DNA of 64,000 bases from a virus (lineage: Duplodnaviria; Caudoviricetes): IMG/VR virus record IMGVR_UViG_3300002220_000674, positions 3,215-67,214 of that record; one strand, written 5' to 3'. Position numbers and translations under genes: made by a program. Of the stretch, positions 320 through 64,000 are shown in pieces (within the stretch, counting starts at the first letter, position 1; each line of letters opens with the position of its first letter). Below the pieces are notes generated by a model that was not told where the DNA came from, did not search any database, and was given only the letters and a program-made list of their open reading frames with translations.

Positions 320-1227
320 AAATATTATGTACAGGTGACTGGCATATCAGAGAAACCAATCCTGAATATCGCATTGATGATTTTAAAACAACATTGAAAC
401 GCAAAATAGTTTCTATTCTTAATCTATATGACAAGCATGATTGTGATTTGTTGTTGCAACCGGGAGATTTTTTTGATTATGCTGCAAGGGTTTCTTATCA
501 AATGTTAAGTGAATGGACTTTGTTTTTTGATGGAGCACCCACAATTTTTACTATTTTAGGACAACATGATACTAAAAACCATTCATTAACCAATAAAGAT
601 ATTCCTGCATATGTTTTTGATGCCATAGGAGCCATTGAGTTATTAAATGATTTTGTTATGGGAAGATCATATATCAAAGATAATGAAAAGTTAAGTTTGT
701 ATGGATGTTCTTATGGAGAAAAGATCCCAAAAGTTTCTAAAGAAAAAGAAATATTTAATATACTTGTCATTCATAAAATGATTATCAAATCTAAAAAACT
801 GTGGGAAGGGCAAGAAGAATACAGTTTAGCAAAGTCTTTATTGAAAAAATATAATTATGATTTGATTGTTTCAGGAGACAACCACACCAAATTTATTGAA
901 ACTTATGAAGATAAAACACTGATTAATATGGGATCTTTAATGAGAACTGCAAAGAATCAACAAGATCATCAACCTGCTGTTGTCATTTTTGATACTGAAA
1001 CAAGGGAATATATAGAAGAACTGATCCCGATTGAACCATTTGATGAAGTGTTTGATATCAATCGTATTGAAAAAGAAACAGTGATTAAAAAAGAATTAAC
1101 AGAATTAGTTGAAGTGTTTGAGGAACAATATGAAACTACTATCGATTTTCTAAAAAATCTTAATATTGTTAAAAAAGCAGCAGATGCAGATACCCTAGAA
1201 ATATTTAATGAAATTTCTTCAACATGA
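316..1227 (+). CDS. Mre11/SbcD-family metallophosphoesterase nuclease
   Basis: Motifs GDWH, GDFFD, GQHD, IH and GDNH, plus NMGSLMR; TTG start. Confidence 0.92.
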   Translation: MKILCTGDWHIRETNPEYRIDDFKTTLKRKIVSILNLYDKHDCDLLLQPGDFFDYAARVSYQMLSEWTLFFDGAPTIFTILGQHDTKNHSLTNKDIPAYVFDAIGAIELLNDFVMGRSYIKDNEKLSLYGCSYGEKIPKVSKEKEIFNILVIHKMIIKSKKLWEGQEEYSLAKSLLKKYNYDLIVSGDNHTKFIETYEDKTLINMGSLMRTAKNQQDHQPAVVIFDTETREYIEELIPIEPFDEVFDINRIEKETVIKKELTELVEVFEEQYETTIDFLKNLNIVKKAADADTLEIFNEISST

Positions 1228-1240
1228 AAGGAACACAATC

Positions 1241-1477
1241 ATGAACATGACAGATAGACTGTTGAAAATGAAAAAAATTATTGAAGAAGCAAAACAAGAA
1301 ATTGCTGTGTTAACTGGTAGAAAAGAAGAAATGCTATCAAGACTTGAAAAAGATTATGGATTAAAAAATGTTGCAACTGCTGAAAAGTTTATTGAAACTG
1401 AAACACAGAAACTGAAAAAAGATAGAACCAAAGCGGAATCAAAATATAAAAAACTGACTGAACAATACAATTGGTAA
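1241..1477 (+). CDS. small coiled-coil protein, possibly a Rad50 coil segment
   Basis: Helical K/E-rich sequence. Start moved to the ATG at 1241 behind AAAGGA. Confidence 0.6.
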   Translation: MNMTDRLLKMKKIIEEAKQEIAVLTGRKEEMLSRLEKDYGLKNVATAEKFIETETQKLKKDRTKAESKYKKLTEQYNW

Positions 1478-1490
1478 TTTATGGGTATAT

Positions 1491-1763
1491 TTGGATATTT
1501 TTTTGGGTATGCAGAGGTTACAGATGAAACCAAAATCAATGAGTATGATAAAGGATTCCAGACCTATTCAGGAAATTCATGGACCAAATGGTGATTGGAT
1601 GATTTCTTGTGGAGATATTTTTGAAGGGCATCCCGATCAGATTGTTTCATATCTTGAAGATGATGGCACAATATGGTTTGCCATTTTAGGAGAAAAGGGA
1701 ACAGTGCTTCAAAGAATAAACAGTAAGTATGTTGGTGAAATTATCTATAACATATCCAGTTAA
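1491..1763 (+). CDS. hypothetical protein
   Basis: Co-oriented ORF filling the operon; true start may be further downstream. Confidence 0.6.
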   Translation: MDIFLGMQRLQMKPKSMSMIKDSRPIQEIHGPNGDWMISCGDIFEGHPDQIVSYLEDDGTIWFAILGEKGTVLQRINSKYVGEIIYNISS

Positions 1764-1781
1764 TCAGAAAGGAGCTTTAAT

Positions 1782-2066
1782 ATGGCATTAAGATGGCGAA
1801 GACAACCAAATGAAGGAGGTTTACGGTCCATTGTTCAAGGATATCGTGGATATCAACTAAGAGATAAGGGTGTAGAATTAGCACATGTTGCAACTATTGA
1901 TCGTCATGGTACGGGTAAAGGTTGGTATTGGTATGCTTTTGGTAAAAACACATGCCAAACACCTGTTAAAACAGCAGAAGAAGCAAAGAAACAGGCAACT
2001 GCTTATGTAAAAACAAAATTAAAGGAGCTTTCTAATGGAAAAGAAAACAAAAAAATCAACAATTGA
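1782..2066 (+). CDS. hypothetical phage protein (WYWYA motif)
   Basis: AAAGGAG RBS and a compact ORF. Confidence 0.7.
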   Translation: MALRWRRQPNEGGLRSIVQGYRGYQLRDKGVELAHVATIDRHGTGKGWYWYAFGKNTCQTPVKTAEEAKKQATAYVKTKLKELSNGKENKKINN

Positions 2067-2319
2067 TAAGATAATTAAATCAAGTGGGTATTCTGAAAAT
2101 GAAGATAAAATTTGGTGTTCAGTTTCCTGCACTGTTCAGATTGTTTCTTATGAACCATTCAATATTACCATAGGAAGGTCGATTACACCGGAACCCAAAC
2201 AAGATCCCGAAAAAATCCTATGTGGTTTAATGAACCGATTGACAAAATATGCTATCACTCAAGCTGAAACTGTAAGGGAAAACCCTGAAGAATTCTATGA
2301 AGAGGCAACTGATGATTGA
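2035..2319 (+). CDS. hypothetical protein
   Basis: AAAGGAG RBS; overlaps both neighbours. Confidence 0.7.
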   Translation: MEKKTKKSTIDKIIKSSGYSENEDKIWCSVSCTVQIVSYEPFNITIGRSITPEPKQDPEKILCGLMNRLTKYAITQAETVRENPEEFYEEATDD

Positions 2320-2893
2320 TCAATTAATAAAAAGACAAAAAGAAGTTTCTAAAAAATTAATTGAAAAAGAAGTCTTAGAAGAACAAATTATTAATTTAAA
2401 AACAGAACTTGTTAAACAAAACAGAAGACACCTTGCAGGATTGAAAGCACGAAAATTAATCATCTTGGCAGCACAAAACACACAAGAAAACTTAAAAGAT
2501 TATATCACAAAGATAGTAAACCTTGCATTAACATCTGTTTTGCCTGATCCACCTGTGTTTTCCATGAAGTTTGAAGAAAGAAGAAACAAAACAGAATGTG
2601 ATCTCATGTTAGATGATGACTCTAACATGTTGGAATCCTATGCAGGTGGAGAATTAGACATCGTTTCCTTTGCTTTGAGATGTATTTTTGTTTCATTAAA
2701 GAAAACAAGAAAAACTTTAATTCTCGATGAAACTTTTAAAAATTTATCGGTGAGTTATCATCAGGCAGCAGCAGTAATGATTAAAACATTATCGGAAAAA
2801 TTGGGGATTCAAATTATATTAGTCTCACATATTCCGGGTTTGATTACTGCTGCTGATAAAACATTTACTTTGACGCAAAAAGGATTGAAATAA
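2297..2893 (+). CDS. C-terminal half of Rad50/SbcC ABC ATPase
   Basis: Short coiled coil followed by a signature-like SYAGGE, Walker B LILDE and H-loop LVSH. No Walker A in this ORF. Confidence 0.85.
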   Translation: MKRQLMIDQLIKRQKEVSKKLIEKEVLEEQIINLKTELVKQNRRHLAGLKARKLIILAAQNTQENLKDYITKIVNLALTSVLPDPPVFSMKFEERRNKTECDLMLDDDSNMLESYAGGELDIVSFALRCIFVSLKKTRKTLILDETFKNLSVSYHQAAAVMIKTLSEKLGIQIILVSHIPGLITAADKTFTLTQKGLK

Positions 2894-2894
2894 G

Positions 2895-3245
2895 ATGGAT
2901 AAACCACCTGTAAACACTGTTACACAGATAGATCGGCAAAGAATATCAGAACTTGCTGAACTTATAAGAACTAACAATATGGTTAGACGTTACCTTGAAG
3001 GTAAAAATGTCTTTGCTTTTCCAATGGATGTGATCACATTTGAAGATTATATAAATCGTTCATTGGAATTAATTTACCAACATTTACCTGATGCTATCAA
3101 ACGAGTCAATGAACTGGAAATTACCTACCAAACATGGTTTGAGAAAGTTCAACTTTATGATAAATTAGCCAAAGAAGTGCGCAAATTAAACAATAAACCA
3201 GAACAAGTAACTAAACTATTAAATCAATTAGGATACAAGGAGTAA
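2895..3245 (+). CDS. hypothetical protein
   Basis: 116-aa co-oriented ORF abutting its neighbours. Confidence 0.65.
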   Translation: MDKPPVNTVTQIDRQRISELAELIRTNNMVRRYLEGKNVFAFPMDVITFEDYINRSLELIYQHLPDAIKRVNELEITYQTWFEKVQLYDKLAKEVRKLNNKPEQVTKLLNQLGYKE

Positions 3246-3248
3246 TAA

Positions 3249-3617
3249 ATGACCCCTGGAATTATTACAACAGAAGAATTTGATTTTATTGTTGAAGAAC
3301 GTATTAAATTAATTAAAAAAGTATTACAGAAAAAAGCGAAGGAATATGCTTCTGATACAAATAGAATGCATAACTTTGTTGCTGGTGCTAACTATGACAA
3401 TGAATCCCCTGAAAAATATTTGTGGAATCTTTGGAAAAAACATTTAGTAGCAGTACAGGATATAATAAACAAAATTGAAAAAGTATACCAAGATGGCATA
3501 GAATATGCGTTTGATGATATTGAATATACAATTGTGAATGAAAAGATAACTGATACTGTTAATTATGCAATTTTATTGGAGGCTTTATTTAATGCCAGAA
3601 GAATTATTACCACTTAA
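3249..3617 (+). CDS. all-alpha NTP-pyrophosphatase-like (MazG/DUF1599-like) protein
   Basis: KAKEYA..D/NRMHNF and EKITDTVNYAILLEAL patterns; AAGGAG RBS. Confidence 0.5.
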   Translation: MTPGIITTEEFDFIVEERIKLIKKVLQKKAKEYASDTNRMHNFVAGANYDNESPEKYLWNLWKKHLVAVQDIINKIEKVYQDGIEYAFDDIEYTIVNEKITDTVNYAILLEALFNARRIITT

Positions 3618-5187
3618 AAAAAAGAGAATTACCATTCAATCTGGTAAAGCCAAAGGTAGAAGGTTACAACAATGGTTTGCTAAACAGATTGCTGAACTAA
3701 CAGGCTTTGAATACGGTAAAGATTGCGATATTGAATCCCGGCCAATGGGACAATCTGGTATTGATATCAGAATGTCAAAGCAAGTTTTGGAAATCTTTCC
3801 GTATTCCCCGGAATGTTTTGTTGGATCTACTTTAGTTTTAACTGAAAATGGTTTCCGTCCTATTAGTAAATTAAAAATAGGGGAAAAAGTTTTTACAAGT
3901 AAAGGACGTTTTAGAAAAATTATAAATATTTTTTCTAAAGAAACAAATAATATTTTAAAATTAACAACAGAAGGATGTACTGAATCTATTTTAACTACTC
4001 CAGAACATCCTTTTGAGACTTTTGATTTTTATTATAAACCTATTACTGATTGTTCATATATTGCTAAATTAATTTATTCTTCTTCTAATTATGATAAACA
4101 TTTTGATGCATTACATCTTAATAGACAACAATTTACTAATGATTTTTTAAATGAAAATGAATGGTATTGTGCTTGCGGTTGTGGTCAATCTTTACCAAAA
4201 ATAGGAAGTAGAAAACGTGTTAAAAGGTATATACAAGGACATGGGGGTGCTCATTACAATATTACAAATATTCCATTAACAGTTTCATTAGATTATGAAT
4301 TAGCTTTTTTATTTGGAATTTATATTGCTGAAGGAAATGTATCTCAAAATAATTTAGTTATTACAATTGATAAAAGAAAAGATTTATTACGTGATTTTAT
4401 TTGTCAAATAATTACAAATAAATTTAATTACAAACCTAAATTATATTCAAATAATAAAACAAATTCTTTACAAATTAAAATTCATTCAGTCATCATTGCA
4501 AATTTTTTTAAATCAGTACTTGGAACAGGTTCCAAGAATAAATATTTAGGTAAATTTTTATTTTTAAATAAAAAAATTTTAGCTGGTTTATTACGAGGAT
4601 ATTTTTTAGGTGATGGTTGTTGTGGAAATGATTTTGCACGATGTGAATCAGTTAGTAGACAGTTAGCTTATGAAATAAATTTTGCATTATTACGTTTTGG
4701 TATCCACAGTAAAGTTATGCTTTCTAAAAGAAGTGAACGTATTAATGATCAAGGTAAATCATATTCTGATTTATACTCTATTTTACTAATTCAAGGAGGA
4801 TTATCTAGGTTCAAACAAATAATGAAAGGTGAAATTGGTGCATTAAAATCTTTATCTAAAATTAAATTATCAGGTCAAAGTCCTTTTATATTTGATTTTT
4901 TACACAATCGTTTATACTCACAAATTAGAAAAAAAGAAATTAAAAATTATAAAAAAATTGTTTATAATCTTTCTGTTGAAGATGATGAAACTTATGTTAT
5001 TGAGGGTGGGTATATTGTTCATAATTGCAAATGTCAAGAAAATTGGGCAGTTCATCAATGGATTGAACAGGCAAAAGCAAATCAACTACCGAATACTGAT
5101 TGGGTAATCTGTGCAAAAAGAAATCATTCTGATCCAGTGGTGATAATCGATGCAAAGGTATTCTTTAAAATTTTGAAAGGGACTTAA
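3592..5187 (+). CDS. phage Holliday junction resolvase (PD-(D/E)xK) interrupted by an intein
   Basis: Exteins join as ..KAKGRRLQQW..GIDI..YSPE|CKCQENW..AKRNHSDPVVIID, about 128 aa once spliced. Start at ATG 3592 behind GGAGG. Confidence 0.85.
   Translation: MPEELLPLKKKRITIQSGKAKGRRLQQWFAKQIAELTGFEYGKDCDIESRPMGQSGIDIRMSKQVLEIFPYSPECFVGSTLVLTENGFRPISKLKIGEKVFTSKGRFRKIINIFSKETNNILKLTTEGCTESILTTPEHPFETFDFYYKPITDCSYIAKLIYSSSNYDKHFDALHLNRQQFTNDFLNENEWYCACGCGQSLPKIGSRKRVKRYIQGHGGAHYNITNIPLTVSLDYELAFLFGIYIAEGNVSQNNLVITIDKRKDLLRDFICQIITNKFNYKPKLYSNNKTNSLQIKIHSVIIANFFKSVLGTGSKNKYLGKFLFLNKKILAGLLRGYFLGDGCCGNDFARCESVSRQLAYEINFALLRFGIHSKVMLSKRSERINDQGKSYSDLYSILLIQGGLSRFKQIMKGEIGALKSLSKIKLSGQSPFIFDFLHNRLYSQIRKKEIKNYKKIVYNLSVEDDETYVIEGGYIVHNCKCQENWAVHQWIEQAKANQLPNTDWVICAKRNHSDPVVIIDAKVFFKILKGT
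3814..5025 (+). mobile_element. intein (404 aa) with LAGLIDADG homing endonuclease, in the resolvase
   Basis: Starts CFVGSTLV and ends YIVHN followed by Cys+1; block B TPEHPF; LAGLIDADG blocks FGIYIAEG and LRGYFLGDG; more AT-rich than the flanks. Confidence 0.93.
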
Positions 5188-8542: not shown

Positions 8543-9685
8543 CTATACAGGAATATATAATTGTTCATGGAAAATACCTGCACCTAATGCAACCCTTGTT
8601 CCATAAGTGACTTCAACTATAATCATAAACATCCCATATCCTGAATTATCCAATGCCGTAATTTTTTGATAAACTCTTCCTGATTTTCCTGTTGTATTAA
8701 TTTCATCTGACCAAGGACCTGTTGCACTTAAACTTATTTGTCCAATAGAAGAATCACTTGTAATTTTAACATTTAATGAACTACCTGAAACTTGTGTGTT
8801 GCAATCATATTGATCAAATATTGTCCATGACATTCGACACACAGGTGGATCATCACCATCATTGCCTGTTTCATTATTCCACCAATTATCCCAAGATACA
8901 GTAACATATGTGATAAGAGCTTCAGACCATTCTGCTCCAATATCTTCAATAAATATTTGTGTTACATTTGGTTTAACAAAAATATAATCCCCAATTAAAA
9001 TATGTTCTCCGGGTATGGATGGCTTTGCAGGTTCTGTAGCAGATTGTACTCCTTTTAAATAATCTACCTCTCCGTCAATTCCAACTACAAAAGCATCATA
9101 ACGATAACGATAACAGGCAGGAGCAGCATCAATAGTAACTGTATATTGACCTGTTCCCATTGCCATAACTTCCCCATCTCCCATAGTCATTGGAGCAGGA
9201 TCATCCATTATGATCTCATCACCCCCAATTAAAGATGGATTGAAAAAATAAGTTTCTCCATCAACGACATATGCCCCTCCAGTTGCAATTAAATTTAAGG
9301 ATTCAGGACTGGTTGGAATTAATTTACCTCCATATAACCAATGATCAGCTAATGGTGATATTTCTGGATAAGTTGGTCCTTCCATCGGAGTAGGGATTGC
9401 TCTTCCTTCTCCTGAAATTTCAATATATCCACGATGTCCTTCTCTCCAAACAATGCGTACTGCATTTCTTGGTTTTAACCAATAAGGAATATCTCGCCAA
9501 TTACGAGGATAATGTGCAATAATATCTTCAGATGATCCTTGTATCCTAACTCTTGCAATTCGAGCAATATGATCAACAGACCATAAAATACCATCAGCAG
9601 TTCCTTTCCGAAGATTAATTCTGCCATCCATATATTTTTTTATGAATTTTTTACCATATAATCTCATCCAGAAATTAACCTCCAT
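8543..9685 (-). CDS. tail protein
   Basis: 380 aa, beta-rich, within the tail-tip block. Confidence 0.6.
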   Translation of the reverse strand: MEVNFWMRLYGKKFIKKYMDGRINLRKGTADGILWSVDHIARIARVRIQGSSEDIIAHYPRNWRDIPYWLKPRNAVRIVWREGHRGYIEISGEGRAIPTPMEGPTYPEISPLADHWLYGGKLIPTSPESLNLIATGGAYVVDGETYFFNPSLIGGDEIIMDDPAPMTMGDGEVMAMGTGQYTVTIDAAPACYRYRYDAFVVGIDGEVDYLKGVQSATEPAKPSIPGEHILIGDYIFVKPNVTQIFIEDIGAEWSEALITYVTVSWDNWWNNETGNDGDDPPVCRMSWTIFDQYDCNTQVSGSSLNVKITSDSSIGQISLSATGPWSDEINTTGKSGRVYQKITALDNSGYGMFMIIVEVTYGTRVALGAGIFHEQLYIPV

Positions 9686-42124: not shown

Positions 42125-45082
42125 TTAGTATTTTCCTAATACGGATTTTTCCTGCATAAATAAAAATCCAGGATTGCTTGTATGTCTGACTCTGAAATCT
42201 TCTACTGTTAATGCCATTCCCCCATAAATAGCATGACCTATTGCATACATAACATCATCTTGGACCCCATTTCTTGATTTTTTCTCTGGTGATCCAAACC
42301 ATTTTCCTAATTCATCCTGTACAAAATATGTCATTTCTTCATATAGAATATCTTGTAACTTAGAACCGGGAATGTTTACTGAAGGTGTTTTAAAATTTCC
42401 TTTGGCTACTGCGGTGTAAAATTCTGAAAAAAAAGTTCGTTGTCTGTCATAAGTGGGATGAACTGCCTGATAAGCAATCTGTTGATCTTCACACCACTCA
42501 GCAAGGTCCCACATTCCCCACCGTTCTGAACATATAGCATCAAGATCATCAAATTCTTCATTGCATTTTAAAATGATATCTTTCATCTGCTTTAATGTAT
42601 TTGGTTCAATGACAAGCAGACCAATTAAAAAATACATATATTCTAATGCTTCAGGATCTTTATAATTAAAAGTTAAAGTTTTACTGCTGTCTTTACATCC
42701 TTTGGCAACCAGTGCAAATAAGGACCTTGCGCCATGTGCTGCCATAGGATCGCTTCTGTCAAATCCTCCAAGAATAACAAAATCTGTATTGTAATGAGCA
42801 CCAATTTTATTGAGATCATCCAAAGAACATATTCCATAAGTGGTATCTATCCCATAAAGAGATGATACAGGATGGAGTTGTTTTTTGATTTGAACAACTT
42901 TTTTATATTTATCCTGAAGAATATCTACGGATTGTTCTTGGTCATTATTTTTTTCATTTTCATTGATTGCATCAATCAGATCAGTTTTTTCTTTGACAAG
43001 TTCAAGAAGTTCTTTATGGGTTTGATTATGAGGAAGGTAGTAACAAGTTTCAACTTGTTCAGGGGTAAACATGGCAAGGGACCCTGAACTCCATGTATTG
43101 AGAAAGTATCTTGCAAATTCACCGGGGGGAAACTTCACACGGTAAGAATCCAACTGTTTCTGATTCATCTGTGGATGCCAATAATCAGATTCTATTCCTA
43201 ATCTTGAATATCGGTATGAAAAAAACAATGCATCATCTTTTTTCTCTTCAAAAATTTCATACAGATTATGAAGTACATGTCCTTTTGCAGATACAGTGGA
43301 GTCAATAACTCCCAAAGCATTTGGAATGTTTCTGATAGAACCATCCAATTGATAAAAAAACTTTGGGTTTTTCATGTCAAAGATTTCAGAAAAAGTATAA
43401 CCTGTAATGTTAGATACAATTCCAGAAAAAGATGAAATAGCTCTGAGAATGTTATATCTTGTTTCATCTTCTCCAGTATGTAAATGTCTTCTGATTTCTT
43501 TTTCCTGTATATTTTTCTTTCCACCTATCCTATATAAAAGAAATGGTGAGTTTAAAATAATATCTCTGATGATATCAAAGTGAACAAACTTGATCTGATC
43601 TTTACTATTTGCACCGAGCATGATTTGTTGTGCATTAAAACACATAAACTTCCATATCTGCACCAATACTGCCTTGAAAGAATTATGGGTTACTGTAAAA
43701 TCAGAACGTATATATCTATGATTACCATCCAAAGCAAATCCATAATAATTCTGTCTACCTACTGATCTGATTTCTTTAATACCTGTAACTAATACATCTT
43801 TCCAACCATCTCTTCTTGGTGTACATTTTCGTCTTGCAACATTCACTGGAATCGTTGAACAGTTTCCAGTAATACCCACACAATAATATTCACCAACAAA
43901 ATCTATAGATTTAATTCCTTTGATGCATTTTTTAATTTCAGCATGAAATCCAAGCGATCTGGCTATAAAAGCAACATCTTCTGCTAATCTTTTTCTTTTA
44001 AGAGTTAATTGAAAAGAATTTCTATTTCTGTACCCATCTCCATCAATAATTCCAGCAAGAATTTTTAATCGGACTTCTCGTGAATTTGCTTTGTATACTT
44101 GTGGAATATGTTTATTATTCAAAAGGTGCTCATGTCGCATAGTTCTAACTAAAGGATGTTCAATTTTATGATTATTGTGAATATTACAGGTAAAAGCTTT
44201 TGTACCTTTTTTTGGGATAATGGAAATAGACAATCCTGTTTTTTCAACATATTCCTGCAAATAATCAATAACTTCCTGATCCATAGTTGTTATAGTTGGT
44301 CTATGTGAATCACCATCAGCAAGCCATAGTCCAAGAAAATAAGGATCAATGGGAACTTCTTGTTCAGGCCAATCAATAGGAACACGATAAAGAAAATATT
44401 TTTCTTTAAACCACTTACTTTGTTTTTGAAAATCTTTTAAGGAAATATCAATGAATTTTTTTTCTTCAAAACCTGCAATCTGCTTTCCTCTTTTATAAAG
44501 ACTCTCCTCACTTCGTTTTAAAGAAAGAATATGATCTGCGGTAACAGTTAAAGGTTCTCCTCTTGTTGGAATCACTTCAAACATTTCTTCTCTGCCACTT
44601 GCAAGTGACAATACTTTACGTGGGGTGTTATCATCCCCCATCAATAAATCTCCAACTTTTACATCTTCAACTTTTTTGATGGTTCCATCTAACATAATGA
44701 TTTTACTACCTTTTCTTTCACACTTTCCTTCACCTCGTGGTTCACAGAAAACAAGAAGTTTATGTTTAAAAATTCCATCTTCCATTTGAAGAGCTTCTTT
44801 GAAAACTTCACATTGCAACTCCCAAAATCTTTTATATGAAGCTCCCGGTCGCCATTCTTCATCAGGTAATGAATGAATAGGAGTCCATACAGGAACAACA
44901 TCTCCTTTTCTGTATATGGGGATTCTGACAAAGTGTCTGCAAAAGTTTATGAAACCTACACCACCATCTCTGTATCTTGGATCATCCATATCAGGAAGTG
45001 CTGAAGTTTTTTTTACTTCCATTGTATTTTGAACTTCAGAAATTAATGAAATTGTCTTTGGTTTTTTCTTTGTAAGTTTCAT
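42125..45082 (-). CDS. terL: terminase large subunit with an intein in Walker A
   Basis: PRGEGK|S P-loop; Walker B-like FSEIF; C-terminal nuclease with QDD; upstream of the portal. Confidence 0.9.
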   Translation of the reverse strand: MKLTKKKPKTISLISEVQNTMEVKKTSALPDMDDPRYRDGGVGFINFCRHFVRIPIYRKGDVVPVWTPIHSLPDEEWRPGASYKRFWELQCEVFKEALQMEDGIFKHKLLVFCEPRGEGKCERKGSKIIMLDGTIKKVEDVKVGDLLMGDDNTPRKVLSLASGREEMFEVIPTRGEPLTVTADHILSLKRSEESLYKRGKQIAGFEEKKFIDISLKDFQKQSKWFKEKYFLYRVPIDWPEQEVPIDPYFLGLWLADGDSHRPTITTMDQEVIDYLQEYVEKTGLSISIIPKKGTKAFTCNIHNNHKIEHPLVRTMRHEHLLNNKHIPQVYKANSREVRLKILAGIIDGDGYRNRNSFQLTLKRKRLAEDVAFIARSLGFHAEIKKCIKGIKSIDFVGEYYCVGITGNCSTIPVNVARRKCTPRRDGWKDVLVTGIKEIRSVGRQNYYGFALDGNHRYIRSDFTVTHNSFKAVLVQIWKFMCFNAQQIMLGANSKDQIKFVHFDIIRDIILNSPFLLYRIGGKKNIQEKEIRRHLHTGEDETRYNILRAISSFSGIVSNITGYTFSEIFDMKNPKFFYQLDGSIRNIPNALGVIDSTVSAKGHVLHNLYEIFEEKKDDALFFSYRYSRLGIESDYWHPQMNQKQLDSYRVKFPPGEFARYFLNTWSSGSLAMFTPEQVETCYYLPHNQTHKELLELVKEKTDLIDAINENEKNNDQEQSVDILQDKYKKVVQIKKQLHPVSSLYGIDTTYGICSLDDLNKIGAHYNTDFVILGGFDRSDPMAAHGARSLFALVAKGCKDSSKTLTFNYKDPEALEYMYFLIGLLVIEPNTLKQMKDIILKCNEEFDDLDAICSERWGMWDLAEWCEDQQIAYQAVHPTYDRQRTFFSEFYTAVAKGNFKTPSVNIPGSKLQDILYEEMTYFVQDELGKWFGSPEKKSRNGVQDDVMYAIGHAIYGGMALTVEDFRVRHTSNPGFLFMQEKSVLGKY
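43682..44722 (-). mobile_element. intein (347 aa) with LAGLIDADG endonuclease in TerL
   Basis: Starts CERKGSK and ends VTHN followed by Ser+1; TADHIL; LGLWLADG; LAGIIDGDG. Confidence 0.93.
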
Positions 45083-45694: not shown

Positions 45695-45946
45695 ATGAAA
45701 CTAATCACAGTTATTTTTTTATCCATATTGATTGCCGGAAATACTTTAACTATTGAACAGGACAAATGGAATTCAGATCAGTATATCATAAAAGATTCTG
45801 ATAATGAAAAGAAAGGAATTATAAAAAAAGATCCGTGGTCTTCCAAACCCAAATGGAATATTTATGATGACAAGAAAAACAAAACTGGAATAATTAAACA
45901 AGATCCCTGGAATAAAAACAAATACAAAATTGAGAAGAAAAAATGA
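45695..45946 (+). CDS. small exported protein with three (I)xxDxW repeats
   Basis: AAAGGAG RBS; hydrophobic N-terminus; divergent from the late operon. Confidence 0.65.
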   Translation: MKLITVIFLSILIAGNTLTIEQDKWNSDQYIIKDSDNEKKGIIKKDPWSSKPKWNIYDDKKNKTGIIKQDPWNKNKYKIEKKK

Positions 45947-45968
45947 CATACAATCATTGTCATGGTGC

Positions 45969-46356
45969 AGGTAGTTGTCACTAAAATACAAAGAGTATAT
46001 TCTATTTGAGTAATATGGAAGGGTATTTGTCAGGATTTGCTACTGGTTTTATACAAAGATACAAACTCAGTATTCATCATGGTTTCCTGATTTGAAAAAA
46101 AATTCAGTCGCCATATGGGATAAAAATATTTTCTTATTTGATATATTACTCAAATGGGATGTAGTAGTATTCATCAATGTTTATGAAAAAATGATAAGTT
46201 TTCATAGTTTTTCATAAAAATAACAAACATAGTATTCATCAGTGTTTACAAAAAATAATTAAATTTCTGTCCCATGTATGTGTTCCTCTCTCAAAATCTG
46301 ATCTCATCCTATAAAATAAACATATGTCACTAACATAAAATAAGTGACAACTACCT
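45969..46356. repeat. non-coding block with nested inverted repeats and three direct repeats
   Basis: 14-bp IR 45969-45982/46343-46356; 13-bp IR 46004-46016/46143-46155; 11-bp IR 46170-46180/46208-46218; AGTATTCATCA three times. Confidence 0.85.
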
Positions 46357-47021
46357 ACAGTAAAAAATTATTCTTATTCTTAAAAAACAATAAATAAAAC
46401 TTATTGTAAACAAACAGAAGGTACATAAACAATATGCCCGATACTATTCATTTCCAATAATCTCTTCTCCTACAGCCTCTGACGAACTCTTATCCAATCA
46501 AATACTATACCCCCTAATAATACACATCTTCAATACATCTTTCAAATCATAGAAAAAAATATGGTGATGTCCTTTGTTTCTTATATATGTATTCTGTATA
46601 TTTATAATCTTTCTACACTATATATTTCAAATCTCCGAAACATTTTTTGTTAGGGTATATGATAACAAATCTATAATGTATCTTTCATTTTCCAGAAAAA
46701 AAATGTGGTGATGATAACAAATCTATAATACATATTCTAAAATTCAGAAAAAAAATGTGGTGGGTTGTCTGACCCAGGCTAAGTGCTACCATAGTCAACT
46801 TTACTTCAGGCGGGCTATAGCAATCATTACTTTACTACAGCATAAAAATATACCATAACAAAACAACAAACCTATGGTGGCATTGAACAAAACAATAACA
46901 TGAAAGTAAATTAAACTATAGTTGTAACATTTTGCTAATGAGTGACATTTTAGCAATGCCATATGACTACACCTGTTCAAGCCCTTTATTTATAATGGTT
47001 TACATGGATATAAAAAAGTAT

Positions 47022-47051
47022 TTGACATAAGTTAAATGCCTATTCTATATT
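47022..47051 (+). promoter_or_regulatory. sigma70-like early promoter
   Basis: TTGACA (47022), 18 nt, TATATT, with an A-tract upstream. Confidence 0.6.
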
Positions 47052-47118
47052 AAAATTAAAAACCCTAACGAAAATGACAAACTAACTAACACTCTTTAAA
47101 AATGAAAGGTGAAACAAA

Positions 47119-47571
47119 ATGAACATTAAAACTTATCAGGCAATCAAACAAGACTTAAAAGATTATCATTTTGATAACCATACCATTCATATTTCATATG
47201 ATGAATTAATCGCTTTAATTGAATATCAATTACCAGAATCTGATGAAAATCAAATAATGAATTGTTTTGACCAACTTCAAAATGATAATTTTATCATTGC
47301 TGATTATAGCTTAGATATATTTATTCTTAACATTAAAGGAAAAAACAAAATGAAAGAAAGATCTTACATGAAAAACCTTAACTATCAGGTAGAGTTTAAC
47401 AATCGTTTAAGCTGTCAATTTGTTTATTTGATTGATGCTCTAAGCTATATCAAAAATAGCAGTATACGAAAGAGCATGCTTAAAAATTATTCATGTTACG
47501 CATTAAATGACAATGGTAAACCTATTAAATCTTATAACTATAATAGTTCAGATCATTATTTTAACCGATAA
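47119..47571 (+). CDS. hypothetical early protein (possibly two in-frame genes)
   Basis: AAAGGTG RBS; second RBS and ATG in frame at 47350. Confidence 0.65.
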   Translation: MNIKTYQAIKQDLKDYHFDNHTIHISYDELIALIEYQLPESDENQIMNCFDQLQNDNFIIADYSLDIFILNIKGKNKMKERSYMKNLNYQVEFNNRLSCQFVYLIDALSYIKNSSIRKSMLKNYSCYALNDNGKPIKSYNYNSSDHYFNR

Positions 47572-47589
47572 AATGAAAGGTGAAACAAA

Positions 47590-47688
47590 ATGAAAATTAT
47601 TTATACATTCTATTTATTAGCAAGCCTGTATTTATTTTCTCATTTGTTTATTTTTGTCTTTAACATTTTTAGCAGTATTAAGTTTTAA
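47590..47688 (+). CDS. 32-aa hydrophobic peptide (not in the ORF track)
   Basis: MKIIYTFYLLASLYLFSHLFIFVFNIFSSIKF; preceded by the same 25-bp RBS/start sequence as 47119. Confidence 0.55.
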   Translation: MKIIYTFYLLASLYLFSHLFIFVFNIFSSIKF

Positions 47689-47696
47689 CCATTGAA

Positions 47697-47729
47697 TAAA
47701 GCCCTTTATTTCATTGATAAAGGGCTTTA
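47697..47729 (+). terminator. hairpin TAAAGCCCTTTAT / ATAAAGGGCTTTA
   Basis: Long perfect stem between early genes; a related hairpin lies at 53416-53448. Confidence 0.6.
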
Positions 47730-47749
47730 AACCATAAAGGAATTTTATC

Positions 47750-48058
47750 ATGATAAAAAAAAGACAAAAGGTTGGCAATACTCCAAAAATTGACAATGAA
47801 GGTTTTAACCCTAAACAGAAAATTATGCTTTCAAGTTTATACGTTTCAAACCTGAAAGGTTTAAAACGACATCACGCAATTAATTTGTTAAGTAATTCCA
47901 ATTATTCATATAAAAGCAATTTATCAATTTCAATGAACGCCGAATACATGATTGACCTTTTAATAAAAATTGATTGTATCAACCTTGAAAAACTTCAAAG
48001 ATTTTTGAATAAAAGATTTGATTCAGCACAGATTTTTTCGGATGATGAACTTTTATAA
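47750..48058 (+). CDS. hypothetical early protein
   Basis: AAAGGA RBS. Confidence 0.65.
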   Translation: MIKKRQKVGNTPKIDNEGFNPKQKIMLSSLYVSNLKGLKRHHAINLLSNSNYSYKSNLSISMNAEYMIDLLIKIDCINLEKLQRFLNKRFDSAQIFSDDELL

Positions 48059-58908: not shown

Positions 58909-59006
58909 AATTTCAAAGCCAAATCAAAATCCTGAAGACTTTTTCCAAAGTCCATACCTTAACATACCTTTTCAAAAACATAGCCTTAAAATTGATGTGA
59001 CAGAAT

Positions 59007-59906
59007 ATGAAAACATTTGATTGGGAATCTTTTTTAGATGATCATGGAATCGATTACATAACATCTGGACATGAACATTGCACATCTTCATTTAAATACC
59101 AAACACATTGCCCCATATCTGGAGTTGAAAATTATCATCTTGGATTAAACCCAACAGGTAATGCATGTTTCAAATGTGGCAGATCTCATTCTCTGTATGA
59201 ACTTTTAGAAGCATGGTTGCATCGTACAGACCATGATCTCAAAAAACTAATGGGTAAGTATGGATCTGGAAAAATCTCTGCTCCTGTGAAGTCTGGTAAA
59301 GCCCTGCATGGTAATAATGAGTTGATGCGTGTACCTGTTTTGGAGTTAACCAAACAACATCAGAAATATTTATCACGAAGAGGATTTAATACTGAACAAT
59401 TAAAAATCCAATACAAAATACAATCCATCATGCCCATTGGTAAATTTGGTGGAAGAATATATATACCTGTTTATCAAAACAGAAAGGAGGTTTGTTTTAC
59501 AACACGATCCACACAGATAAAGGGACATGCAAAATATACACATTGCTATGATGACAAAAGTATTGTGCCAATCAAAGACTGTTTGTATGGTTTGGATGAT
59601 TGTAAAAATGATCATGTTGTTTTGGTTGAAGGAGTTACAGATGTATGGAACATTGGGACTGATACAGTATGCATGTTTGGAAAAACTTTATCTGACATAC
59701 AAAAGAGGTTGTTGGTTAAAAGATTTAAAACCATTTTCGTTTTGCTTGATCCTGATGCATTCAAACAATCCAAACAGATTAAAACAAAACTTTCACCGTA
59801 CAGAAAAACTATATGTTTAGCATTAAAGGATAAAGATCCAGGGGAACTGACTAAACAGGAAGTTTATGAACTATTAAATACAATTAATCAATTGAAAGGA
59901 AAATAA
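59007..59906 (+). CDS. DNA primase (zinc-binding domain + TOPRIM)
   Basis: HCP..H..CFKCG; VLVEGVTDV; LLDPDA. Confidence 0.85.
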   Translation: MKTFDWESFLDDHGIDYITSGHEHCTSSFKYQTHCPISGVENYHLGLNPTGNACFKCGRSHSLYELLEAWLHRTDHDLKKLMGKYGSGKISAPVKSGKALHGNNELMRVPVLELTKQHQKYLSRRGFNTEQLKIQYKIQSIMPIGKFGGRIYIPVYQNRKEVCFTTRSTQIKGHAKYTHCYDDKSIVPIKDCLYGLDDCKNDHVVLVEGVTDVWNIGTDTVCMFGKTLSDIQKRLLVKRFKTIFVLLDPDAFKQSKQIKTKLSPYRKTICLALKDKDPGELTKQEVYELLNTINQLKGK

Positions 59907-59908
59907 TT

Positions 59909-60724
59909 ATGAGAACACAACCAGTGATTTCTATGGAAGCTTTAAAACATTATACACCAGCAGCATTTGGAACTCCATCTGAAAACGTATCAAACAGATA
60001 TGCATATGTACCCACACATGAAGTATTGACCATGCTCCATGATGAAGGATTTGTCATCACCAAAGCAGTTCAGACAGGATATCGCAATAACAAATCGGAT
60101 TTTGGAAAGCATATGATCCGGTTACGCCATCGAAACTTTGAAAATCCACAAGAACTTGGTATTGGTGGACTAATACCGGAAATCGTAATGATCAATTCCC
60201 ATGATGCAAAATCTTCATTTAAAATTATGGCAGGATTATTCAGATTAGTATGCTTAAATGGAATGATTGTACCCCAGGGACCAAACCAAAAGAATGTAAT
60301 CAGACATTTCGGTAATGCTGAACAGGTAGTTAATGCTGTTTTTGATGTGGTTAAAACAGTTCCATTGGTAATGAACAATGCCAAAGAGATGTCCACTATT
60401 AATCTTACTGAAGTTGAGAAAGATGTATTTGCCAATGCTGCAAGTGAATTACGTTGGCCTACTGGAGAAATAGATGCACCTAAACGTGTTAATCCACAGT
60501 ATCTGCTTACTCCCAAACGACATGATGATAATAAAAATGATCTTTGGACAACCTTTTCTGTAGTGCAGGAAAACATGCTCAAAGGTGGTACTCCTGCATA
60601 TAATCGTGGAAGAATGAGAAGATCTAAACCAATCAAAGCAATCAATGAAGATGTCAGATTGAACAAAGCTTTATGGATGTTAGCAGACCAAATGAAACAG
60701 ATCAAATTGGAGGAAGCAGCATGA
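59909..60724 (+). CDS. DUF932/DUF945-family protein
   Basis: S.RYAYVPT; H.IRLR; NSHDAKSSF..AGLFRLVCLNGM; R.DD..DLW. Confidence 0.85.
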   Translation: MRTQPVISMEALKHYTPAAFGTPSENVSNRYAYVPTHEVLTMLHDEGFVITKAVQTGYRNNKSDFGKHMIRLRHRNFENPQELGIGGLIPEIVMINSHDAKSSFKIMAGLFRLVCLNGMIVPQGPNQKNVIRHFGNAEQVVNAVFDVVKTVPLVMNNAKEMSTINLTEVEKDVFANAASELRWPTGEIDAPKRVNPQYLLTPKRHDDNKNDLWTTFSVVQENMLKGGTPAYNRGRMRRSKPIKAINEDVRLNKALWMLADQMKQIKLEEAA

Positions 60725-61477: not shown

Positions 61478-61526
61478 CATATAGTAGACATCTATTTATA
61501 TTATGACAATATTTAGATGTCTACTA
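61474..61526 (+). promoter_or_regulatory. sigma70 promoter with a 13-bp perfect inverted-repeat operator
   Basis: TTGACA (61474), 17 nt, TATATT (61497); TAGTAGACATCTA at 61482-61494 and TAGATGTCTACTA at 61514-61526. Confidence 0.8.
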
Positions 61527-61544
61527 ACAACCAAAGGAGATAAC

Positions 61545-61745
61545 ATGACACACAGAATGACTGTAAGATTATCAGATAAACAGAAACTTTCATTGGATGT
61601 ATTGGCACAGGGAATGGAGCAGAACTTAAATGAAATTATCAGGAGGGCAATTGACGATTACATTATGACCATGACCAGCAACGAGCATCTACTGGACAAG
61701 CTTATGAACATGGAGAAAAAGAAAAAGAAATCATTAAGAATTTAG
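61545..61745 (+). CDS. ribbon-helix-helix (CopG/Arc-like) regulator
   Basis: RMTVRLSDKQ..L..LA..NLNEIIRRAIDDY; ATG 61545 behind AAAGGAG. Confidence 0.85.
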   Translation: MTHRMTVRLSDKQKLSLDVLAQGMEQNLNEIIRRAIDDYIMTMTSNEHLLDKLMNMEKKKKKSLRI

Positions 61746-62354
61746 TGACAATTAAATTACCAAAAACAGACAAACATTCACTGTCAAATCGACACAAAAT
61801 CAATGCCAAATCAGGGGTGTTTTTGGGGGGTGCTAATCAGCAAATTTCTTCAATGATTTCAGGAAGTTCCAACGTGAGGGGTGCAGTATTAATGAGGAGA
61901 CACTAGCCAGACCGTGTCCAAGTTTCCAAGTCTTGATTCTTGATTATGAATGAACGAAGTGAATTCATAATTTAGAATTACAGACAAGGATTAATGATTC
62001 GGTTGAGAAATGAGAATGGAATGGAATTGTACAAATATATAGAAATTATGGAATATGTAGGATTCTAGAAAAATAATATATTTAGTGACAACTATGAAAT
62101 TTATGGAATAGTAGGGATAAAATGTATATGTATTACTGATTAGTAATAGTAAGTAAAGTAATAGTTATTGTAAAATTAGGGTTGTATTCTGAAAATATTA
62201 TGATATGGTTTTTGTAGAAAGTGAAAACCCCAAAGGTAATGGGCCTTCAGGGTTTTCGAAATCGGTACGGGTTGCGGACCCTTTAACACTCTGTAAAATA
62301 TTCCAAGAATAGGAACACTTACATGGAAAATATCCAGATAAAAGGATCACGTAC

Positions 62355-63707
62355 ATGAAAAATATACTCCATGATGGAATAAATGTCAAACAAAATATTG
62401 TTAATACAATCCCTGATGATGCTTATCTATTTGATCCCAATCGTAAAGTTTCTTTTTTAAACACCACTCCTGAATTTAATCACTTATTTGAAAATTTATT
62501 TATTCCCAAAGGCACAAGAGAGGTACAAGAAAAGTATCAAACCTTTTGTGGGTTTCTTTATTCACTTGCTGATGCTTTTTTAGAAAACAGATCAATCAGT
62601 CTTTGTTCTAGAGAACATGATAAGTATTGGTATGTTCGTAAAATGATACCAATTCTTGAAAAAGAAAATTACATACAAATAAGAAAAGGATTTTTCAAAT
62701 GCATGTATCATCCTTCTAACCGTTTAACGAGGGTTTATCCAACTATGAAAACATTAGAAAAGTTATTCCCAATGGGGCATAGTTTCACAATACTACCGGA
62801 ACCATATCCTTTTATTTTCAAGGATGCAGTTATAAAAATAAAAAAGAATAACAGGAAAAAAAGAACCTGGAAAATTAACATACAAAAATCAAAAAGATAT
62901 CCTGTTTACATACAACGATCATATAAACTTTTATATCAACTCAGTGAATTCAATGCAGGGCAGTTATATTTTGGTCCTGATGTACTTCCGGCAGTTCTTT
63001 ACCGGGTGTTTAATGGTAACTGGAAAAGCAATGGAAGAATCTATGTGTTCAATGATAAAGTTTTCACACCATTTCGGTTATTGAAACCAGTTGAAAAAGC
63101 ATATGAACAGTCTACAGATATTGAACCAGTACAGCAAAACTATCAATCATTTTCAAAAAAAGATCGTAAACATATCCTGATTGGTGGAGAAGAGGGAGTG
63201 GAGATTGATTTTGTAGGTATGCATCCAAGAATGTTGTATGCTCTTAAAGCAAACATACAATATGATAAAGATCCATACTTGGAAATTGTTCAAGACCCTG
63301 AACTAAGAAACTTTGCAAAGAAAATATTGTATTGTGCTTTTTATTCCACTGATAAAACAATTCTCAAACAGGCTATTCAAAATCAAATCTACAAAGCTTC
63401 ATATTCAATTAAAGAAAAACTGAAACAGAAACAATTAGATACCCATCAAAAACTTCTTATCAAAATGGAAGAAGTTCATAAACCCATTGCTAAATATTTT
63501 GGCAGTGATATTTCATTAAGTCTTTGTTTTACAGAATCAGAAATCATGCTGGATGTCACAAGACAGTTATACAAAAATGATATTCATTTCATGTTGATTC
63601 ATGATTCAATCAGAGTTCCTGAAGATACTGCTGATTTTGTCACAGATCTTATGCATGAAATGTATACCAAACACACTAAATTTAAAGGACAGATTACTGT
63701 GGATTGA
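62355..63707 (+). CDS. minimal family-A / T7-RNAP-like polymerase (TV-Pol-like), no exonuclease domain
   Basis: GRIY; QSFSKKDR; motif A EIDFVGMHPRML; motif B RxxxKxxxxxxxY (RNFAKKILYCAFY); motif C FMLIHDS. Confidence 0.7.
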   Translation: MKNILHDGINVKQNIVNTIPDDAYLFDPNRKVSFLNTTPEFNHLFENLFIPKGTREVQEKYQTFCGFLYSLADAFLENRSISLCSREHDKYWYVRKMIPILEKENYIQIRKGFFKCMYHPSNRLTRVYPTMKTLEKLFPMGHSFTILPEPYPFIFKDAVIKIKKNNRKKRTWKINIQKSKRYPVYIQRSYKLLYQLSEFNAGQLYFGPDVLPAVLYRVFNGNWKSNGRIYVFNDKVFTPFRLLKPVEKAYEQSTDIEPVQQNYQSFSKKDRKHILIGGEEGVEIDFVGMHPRMLYALKANIQYDKDPYLEIVQDPELRNFAKKILYCAFYSTDKTILKQAIQNQIYKASYSIKEKLKQKQLDTHQKLLIKMEEVHKPIAKYFGSDISLSLCFTESEIMLDVTRQLYKNDIHFMLIHDSIRVPEDTADFVTDLMHEMYTKHTKFKGQITVD

Positions 63708-63718
63708 AAGGAATTATT

Positions 63719-64000
63719 ATGGCACGAGAAAACCATAAAGAAAAAGTATTGTATCCTTACAAATCATGGGCAGATATAGCAAGAGCAAGGCGTAAAAATA
63801 CCATACCAAATTATAAAGAAAAATTTAATGCCTATATGTATTCTTTTAAATTCTTCTTGAAACAAGAAGAGAAAGTACAATCAGTTAATTATTGTTGTGA
63901 ATGGTGTAAAAAACCAAATAAACCAATATATGTTCGACATCTGAATTTTAAAAATGTTTTTGAAGAGAATATGGAAGATTTAATTGTTCTTTATAATTTG
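63719..64000 (+). CDS. HNH-like protein truncated by the window edge, apparently degenerate
   Basis: Open to the window end: ..CCEWCKKPNKPIYVRHLNFKNVFEENMEDLIVLY..; AAAGGA RBS. Confidence 0.5.
   Translation, partial: MARENHKEKVLYPYKSWADIARARRKNTIPNYKEKFNAYMYSFKFFLKQEEKVQSVNYCCEWCKKPNKPIYVRHLNFKNVFEENMEDLIVLYNL

Follow-up and report, generated by a model that had tools for sequence, protein, structure and literature searches.

Introduction

Minimal polymerases with the fold of PolA and T7 RNA polymerase (RNAP) have been published as divPolA2 and as TV-Pol. Members of divPolA2 (Yutin, Tolstoy, Mutz, Wolf, Krupovic and Koonin 2024, Virol J 21:200, PMC11348598), represented by AUR84708 of Vibrio phage 1.063.O, are without a homologous thumb, while TV-Pol (Iyer, Abhiman and Aravind 2008, Biol Direct 3:39, PMC2579912) includes a subset with an N-terminal TV-PolN domain. 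The only TV-Pol-type enzyme tested biochemically is CcPol of SCCmec with its partner MP, a DNA primase-polymerase shown experimentally to prime DNA de novo (Bebel et al. 2020, eLife 9:e55478, PMC7581432). Here we analyse a gene in a 64,000-nucleotide (nt) stretch of Caudoviricetes DNA (positions 3,215 to 67,214 of IMG/VR record IMGVR_UViG_3300002220_000674; hereafter the window), whose product of 450 amino acids (aa), encoded at 62355-63707, is almost certainly a divPolA2-group polymerase: minimal, family-A/T7-RNAP-like and without an exonuclease. To our knowledge, no divPolA2 family member has been assayed biochemically. An earlier note on this DNA, made from the letters alone, had described the gene as a hybrid PolA/T7-RNAP-like polymerase in a phage that already encodes a primase.

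Predicted fold and catalytic motifs

Modelling with AlphaFold2 and a 78-member alignment gave a mean predicted local distance difference test score (pLDDT) of 82, with ~98 across residues 270-450. The leading Foldseek matches were all family-A DNA polymerases (Taq, Bst, apicoplast Pol and Pol theta; E ~2e-6 to 6e-5), and the top 20 of an all-against-all structural search held only family-A DNA polymerases (DNAPs) and T7-like RNAPs, aligned over residues ~148-450. The structural-search scores were 15.0 for apicoplast Pol, 13.5 for Klenow, 13.1 for yeast mitochondrial RNAP, 13.0 for T7 DNAP, 12.4 for T7 RNAP (a match limited to the core, residues 148-448), 8.3 for N4 mini-vRNAP and 7.7 for N4 RNAP II. 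A right-hand polymerase fold without exonuclease, as the earlier note had it, is recovered by both searches, for residues 148-450 only; in the model, residues 38-147 fold apart from it as a small head domain that looks, weakly, winged-helix-like. The thumb region is of low confidence at residues 141-178, and a single clear helix (184-200) precedes a beta-hairpin with strands at 215-220 and 226-231. The length of the last thumb helix has been proposed to mark enzymes that initiate de novo (Rice 2022).

Kinship with family A is visible through this predicted fold only, not through the PF00476 profile. Neither the 450-aa polymerase nor any of 78 relatives matched PF00476 (DNA_pol_A) or PF00940 (RNA_pol) in Pfam; the polymerase had no Pfam, NCBIfam or PADLOC match, the same libraries were blank for its relatives, and its sole PHROG match was phrog_4756, of unassigned function (E 4e-39). 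PDB sequences gave no match, by sequence or by profile. With hhalign, the family profile was not significantly similar to a single T7 RNAP sequence or to a single T7 DNAP, where only motif C was in register (with VHDE).

Conservation was counted over an alignment of 78 divergent family members, and motif segments were compared with the real T7 sequences (Table 1). R228, R271, E283, D285, Y295, Y308 and K322 are invariant, and G227, Q264, D306, R318, H375, D394, H416, D417 and S418 nearly so (hairpin G227 77/78 and R228 78/78; fingers D306 77/78). Motif A (IDFVGMHPRMLYA vs IDASGLELRCLAH) and motif B (RNFAKKILYCAFYS vs RDNAKTFIYGFLYG) resemble T7 DNAP, whereas motif C (FMLIHDSIRV vs FALIHDSFGT) and the hairpin (GRIYV vs GRVYA) resemble T7 RNAP, in agreement with the hybrid motif set previously proposed. 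The motif A aspartate predicted at 63207 is Asp285, encoded exactly there and present in all 78 members.

With both catalytic Asp conserved, the polymerase appears catalytically intact. It is very improbable that the fold is dead and now serves DNA binding or regulation instead: in most of the family Leu and Asn stand in place of the O-helix aromatics (positions 326/330), which would fit such a loss, but the two metal-binding Asp, the motif C His, R318/K322 and Arg228 are invariant or close to it over the alignment, and the window copy retains both O-helix Tyr. Tyr/Tyr is shared with its 46%-identical relative (P0002), and the resulting K-x3-Y-x3-Y pattern is that of T7 DNAP RDNAKTFIYGFLYG.

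The steric-gate position, 290, is His in 70 and Gln in 6 of the 78; in the motif A register (T7 DNAP D475...E480, T7 RNAP D537...G542) it corresponds to Gly542 and to Klenow Glu710. A deoxyribonucleotide (dNTP) substrate may be slightly favoured over a ribonucleotide (rNTP) because of this bulky His, where T7 RNAP has Gly and T7 DNAP has Glu, together with the K-x3-Y-x3-Y O-helix. The same residues bear on a rival explanation, namely that the protein is a very small single-subunit DNA-dependent RNAP, comparable to N4 RNAP II, whose head reads a promoter class and which transcribes a subset of genes. We consider this unlikely but far from negligible: its HDS motif C, GRxY hairpin and structural scores agree with an RNAP. 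The ribose-gate position, however, is occupied by His or Gln, both bulky, in 76/78 members and by Glu in AUR84708, and the window protein has His there, not the Gly of T7-like RNAPs. It is also about half the size, or less, of T7 RNAP, N4 RNAP II and mitochondrial RNAP; only residues 148-450 align, with no T7-type promoter-recognition N-terminal domain or specificity loop, and the PF00940 match is missing.

Relation to published families

An exhaustive HMMER search of cluster representatives (50% identity) at E <= 1e-3 returned 1851 related representatives, 272 of which reach 1e-10; the names of the clusters gave no hint of function. Most are 420-470 aa long with a conserved core at ~residues 260-445; the extensions of the 530-742-aa members had no Pfam domain, and no longer fused forms were seen in the search, although this is weak evidence. 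A plasmid collection yielded 3 matches only, all unannotated, and one family member (P0036) matches 115 Rheinheimera barbavirus records (E ~5e-11).

A profile (A1) seeded on the window protein matches MG592441.1 25445-26698 on the minus strand, which is AUR84708.1, at E 2.9e-43. Pairwise BLASTP of the two proteins gives E 2e-6 and 26% identity over 85 aa spanning motifs A-B. By this profile link the window protein is a distant, divergent member of divPolA2, and the earlier view of it as part of something undescribed does not hold, the family having been published in 2024. As in divPolA2, the enzyme is extra to a regular DNAP and has an intact palm, no exonuclease, an N-terminal globular domain, variable neighbourhoods, and DNAPs plus mitochondrial and N4 RNAPs as structural neighbours. 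It differs in that the regular DNAP of its phage is a UDG-PolA and not PolB, that the steric-gate residue is His where AUR84708 has Glu, and that the O-helix carries Tyr-Tyr. Yutin et al. report no similarity for the N-terminal domain (PMC11348598), whereas the head modelled here weakly resembles a winged helix, and bacterial integrative-island members, abundant in our search, are unreported there. As a side observation, AUR84708 (L092 4473-5762, minus strand) carries its Glu within DFKAFE, compared with His in most sampled members, and a simple pattern search found no HD[SA] string in it, so that its motif C departs from the consensus.

The suggested fit to TV-Pol stands in part. The window protein shares its minimal PolA/T7-RNAP-like core: an Arg on the hairpin, an RRM palm with two conserved Asp, and HTH-type fingers with an Asp and RxxxK. 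It also shares the 400-600 aa size, the extra N-terminal domain and the lack of a nuclease, and its family, like TV-Pol, is found both in phages and in elements that carry integrases or resolvases in restriction-modification (R-M) hot spots, beside normal replication genes. The A1 profile did not match the record of Microcystis phage Ma-LMM01, whose PF00476 match is an ordinary PolA, and kinship to the founding TV-Pols (such as Ma-LMM01, Sputnik V13 and CcPol) is putative. The TV-Pol thumb consists of two antiparallel coiled-coil helices (PMC2579912), compared with one clear helix and the low-confidence stretch in our model; neither a neighbouring nor a fused D5-like helicase turned up among the loci of the window family; and the TV-Pol-like association with integrases and resolvases holds for the bacterial members but not for the window phage. 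CcPol-MP is likewise built on an exonuclease-less family-A polymerase of a mobile element, but CcPol is recognisable as PolA by sequence, is devoid of an N-terminal domain, depends on MP, a small OB-fold protein, and acts together with the Cch2 helicase. For the window protein we identified no counterpart of such a partner.

Replication genes of the host phage

The window forms the end of a 67-kb record with an estimated completeness of 46%; since the record is so incomplete, the lack of a DNAP in the window is uninformative. Among the sequencing runs listed for this DNA none was an RNA run, and the only one to contain it in full was a hydrocarbon metagenome, perhaps the sample of origin. An identical polymerase protein is, however, encoded on a longer, 86-kb contig, where an 843-aa UDG + DNA_pol_A fusion lies ~11.6 kb downstream of the polymerase gene, beyond the window end (L008 14180-16711). 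This contig also encodes a DnaB-like helicase (521 aa), a dCMP deaminase, an AAA+ clamp loader, a thymidylate synthase and a clamp-like protein (339 aa, faint Pfam match only). The fusion gene itself is flanked by the faint clamp-like gene, the dCMP deaminase and the clamp-loader-like AAA+ gene. Because the contig with the identical gene carries UDG-PolA, DnaB-like helicase, clamp-like protein and clamp loader, the 62355-63707 polymerase is an accessory enzyme and not the replicase, and the alternative that it is the sole replicative polymerase is ruled out. The phage of its closest relative (L005, 46% identity) also encodes a UDG-PolA, of 840 aa.

Upstream of the gene, the window encodes an SNF2 helicase, a phrog_154 'replication initiation'-like protein, a DnaG-type primase and a DUF932 protein. 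The earlier claim that the polymerase coexists with a primase and lacks a D5 partner is upheld.

Neighbourhoods across the family

We surveyed the context of 14 viral loci, 59 bacterial loci and several contigs, with integrases counted over 77 loci. A tyrosine integrase lies within six genes at 21/77 loci, a small serine resolvase at 7 and a large serine recombinase at 3; many family members sit in bacterial integrative elements, and R-M genes recur nearby. One such island, in an Ignavibacteriales metagenome-assembled genome (L028 8215-21356), reads tyrosine integrase, helix-turn-helix gene HTH_17, family gene and a 106-aa open reading frame (ORF), followed by a cargo of type I R-M (HsdR/S/M), HigB with an HTH-M78 peptidase, and McrBC. 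The usual occupant of such a slot is a replication or priming protein. This integrative-island neighbourhood matches the account of the N-domain-bearing subset given in the TV-Pol paper (PMC2579912).

Two of these contexts also speak against an RNAP. In L011 (9380-12894), and also in L010, a 445-aa family gene lies directly upstream of a genuine 682-aa T7-like RNAP (PF00940 E 3e-69), with terminase and portal genes coming next, and the small integrase-HTH_17 islands have no evident need of an RNAP of their own.

A different reading is suggested by one T4-like clade, in which the gene order is UvsY - UvsW - x - divPolA2-family gene. The enzyme might be a primer-dependent DNAP for repair, gap-filling or recombination without any initiation function, as is consistent with the absence of a proofreading domain, a feature of translesion or repair PolA enzymes, with repair being listed among the possible roles by Yutin et al. 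(PMC11348598), and with CcPol without MP only extending primers (PMC7581432). Yet a head that looks like a sequence reader and an integrase-proximal island position would be unexpected for a general repair enzyme, and neither the window nor most loci show linkage to repair genes; we regard this role as unlikely.

A small DNA-binding gene upstream of the polymerase was found in only four contexts, the ribbon-helix-helix (RHH) gene of the window, the Cro/C1-type gp98 of ICP1, HTH_26 of Vibrio phage 496E54-1 and HTH_17 of the island; none was detected at the remaining loci examined. In ICP1 the homologue is ORF100/gp100, at 58,951-60,618 in ICP1_2006_E, and for this phage an early peak of read coverage has been reported 'near the 60 kb position', which fits a single origin of bidirectional replication. 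The proximity of ORF100 to this origin is a coincidence of positions and a coarse link, the experimental strain being one without CRISPR-cas2-3.

Upstream spacer, flanking genes and other features of the window

The earlier note had also joined the RHH gene, the leader and the polymerase into a module. The RHH gene and the 609-nt spacer behind it are real (Table 1), but the arrangement is not conserved: in L005 an RHH gene is missing, the gene upstream encodes a 121-aa coiled-coil-like protein, and the spacer is 780 nt long. What is kept in L005 is a long repeat-bearing spacer, in neighbourhoods that otherwise vary. The two spacers do not align, and nonetheless share a layout of short repeats, a 13-mer (TGATATGGTTTTT) ~150 nt ahead of the start codon, and a GC-rich hairpin after it. 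TGGAATA occurs 3 times in the window spacer against 0.28 expected (P ~0.003, motif chosen post hoc) and 5 times in the L005 spacer against 0.62 expected (P ~0.0005, with the same post hoc choice). At 9426-9664 the L005 spacer also holds ~20 tandem units of ~10 nt, TATAGGG(G)A-like (TATAGGGATT / AATAGGGGA), then TCCATGACAAATGTGGAATA twice; this array looks iteron-like, with helical-repeat periodicity. The 13-mer reads like an extended -10 element. The spacer had no Rfam match and no tRNA was found in or near it, and the leader is best read, from its sequence, as a putative promoter and structured 5' untranslated region downstream of a repeat field.

Downstream, the HNH ORF separates the polymerase gene from a 314-aa gene (L003 11365-12634). 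It is absent in L005, where the counterpart of the 314-aa gene (294 aa; 27% identity, E 3e-28) lies directly downstream of the polymerase homologue. No family was matched by this conserved 314/294-aa gene; a gp59-like loader was its sole Atlas lead (0.89), below the useful threshold, and was not retained.

Table 1. Positions in the window of the polymerase gene, its domains and motifs, and further features
Feature	Position	Strand	Evidence
divPolA2-type minimal family-A polymerase gene, 450 aa	62355..63707	+	ORF; phrog_4756 E 4e-39; family profile
N-terminal winged-helix-like domain (weak resemblance in the model), aa 38-147	62466..62795	+	
Polymerase core, aa 148-450 (reduced thumb, Arg228-bearing beta-hairpin, palm and fingers)	62796..63704	+	
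Motif A catalytic Asp285; His290 at PolA steric-gate position (+5)	63207..63209	+	D285 78/78
Motif B / O-helix, R318-x3-K322-x3-Y326-x3-Y330	63306..63344	+	R318 76/78, K322 78/78
Motif C His416-Asp417-Ser418	63600..63608	+	H 77/78, D 76/78, S 76/78
Ribbon-helix-helix (CopG/Arc-like) gene	61503..61745	+	PF01402 E 8e-7
609-nt spacer	61746..62354	.	
TGGAAT(A) repeats in spacer	62016-62110		
Promoter-like TTGTAT-16 nt-TGATATGGT in spacer	62182-62209		
GC-rich hairpin in 5' leader	62223-62257		
32-nt tandem repeat	62292-62355		
HNH-endonuclease-like small ORF	63704..64000, cut by window end	+	phrog_8048 E 6e-4; 125 aa on longer contig
Tape-measure ORF, 3159 aa	15026-24505	-	phrog_1533 E 2e-56; tape-measure families across residues ~1140-3040

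Elsewhere in the window, the 3159-aa tape-measure protein implies an exceptionally long tail, and its identification led us to reject the idea of a crAss-like phage. A 985-aa ORF at 42125-45082 (minus strand) has weak, partial matches to large terminases (E 2e-13, residues ~130-380) and is of unusual length for a terminase. A 540-aa ORF at 3565-5187 (plus strand) has a short match to anaerobic ribonucleotide reductase (residues 83-151) and a weak C-terminal RusA-like match, and may be composite or mis-joined.

Proposed function

What, then, would an accessory polymerase of this kind do? The likeliest role, to which we give a little less than an even chance, is that of an initiator or primase-polymerase, providing site-directed chain initiation or extension for replication. 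The winged-helix-like head would bring the polymerase to one particular DNA site, perhaps the spacer with its repeats beside the polymerase gene; the core would start and/or extend a short nucleic-acid chain there; and the main replisome would then take over this chain. We infer the DNA binding by the head, the de novo initiation, the substrate and the site of action alike. Such a role is favoured because of the DNA-reader-like head, the integrase-proximal island position together with the CcPol precedent, and the repeat-bearing spacers, and it may be likened to that of the TV-Pol member CcPol-MP. The coarse positional coincidence of ICP1 ORF100 with the early coverage peak points the same way.

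Several points weigh against a role in initiation. The window phage already encodes a primase and an initiator-like protein, gene neighbourhoods vary across the family, and several divPolA2 paralogs per genome have been reported (PMC11348598). Furthermore, the window has a compositional strand switch at about 46-48 kb. In this region (45700-48000) a minus-strand structural block meets a plus-strand early/replication block, GC is the lowest of the window (0.26-0.27), the cumulative GC skew has its minimum and ORFs are few, and a 52-nt tandem repeat is present in 2 copies (46659-46762). By composition, an origin would be sought in this strand-switch region sooner than in the spacer at 61.7-62.35 kb.

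A bolder reading, which we regard as somewhat unlikely, is that the ~300-aa core and the head make up a self-sufficient, sequence-directed de novo polymerase that starts chains at short repeats beside its own gene. It would be either the smallest right-hand DNA-dependent RNAP known or a one-polypeptide DNA primase, and phages and integrative islands would share a portable cassette, either of origin plus initiator or of promoter plus polymerase.

Conclusion

To conclude, the window copy in itself adds little beyond a divergent member with an unusual, T7-DNAP-like O-helix. It belongs, however, to a very large family (1851 clusters at 50% identity) that extends across many phage types and bacterial integrative islands, has no function in Pfam, NCBIfam or PHROG, and shows the PolA/T7-RNAP fold in one of its smallest natural forms. 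Whether these enzymes make RNA or DNA, and whether they are able to start chains, bears on how the PolA/T7-RNAP superfamily acquired priming and transcription, and a compact enzyme for biotechnology could result from the family. As ICP1 ORF100 lies close to a mapped early origin, the question is testable in an established system.
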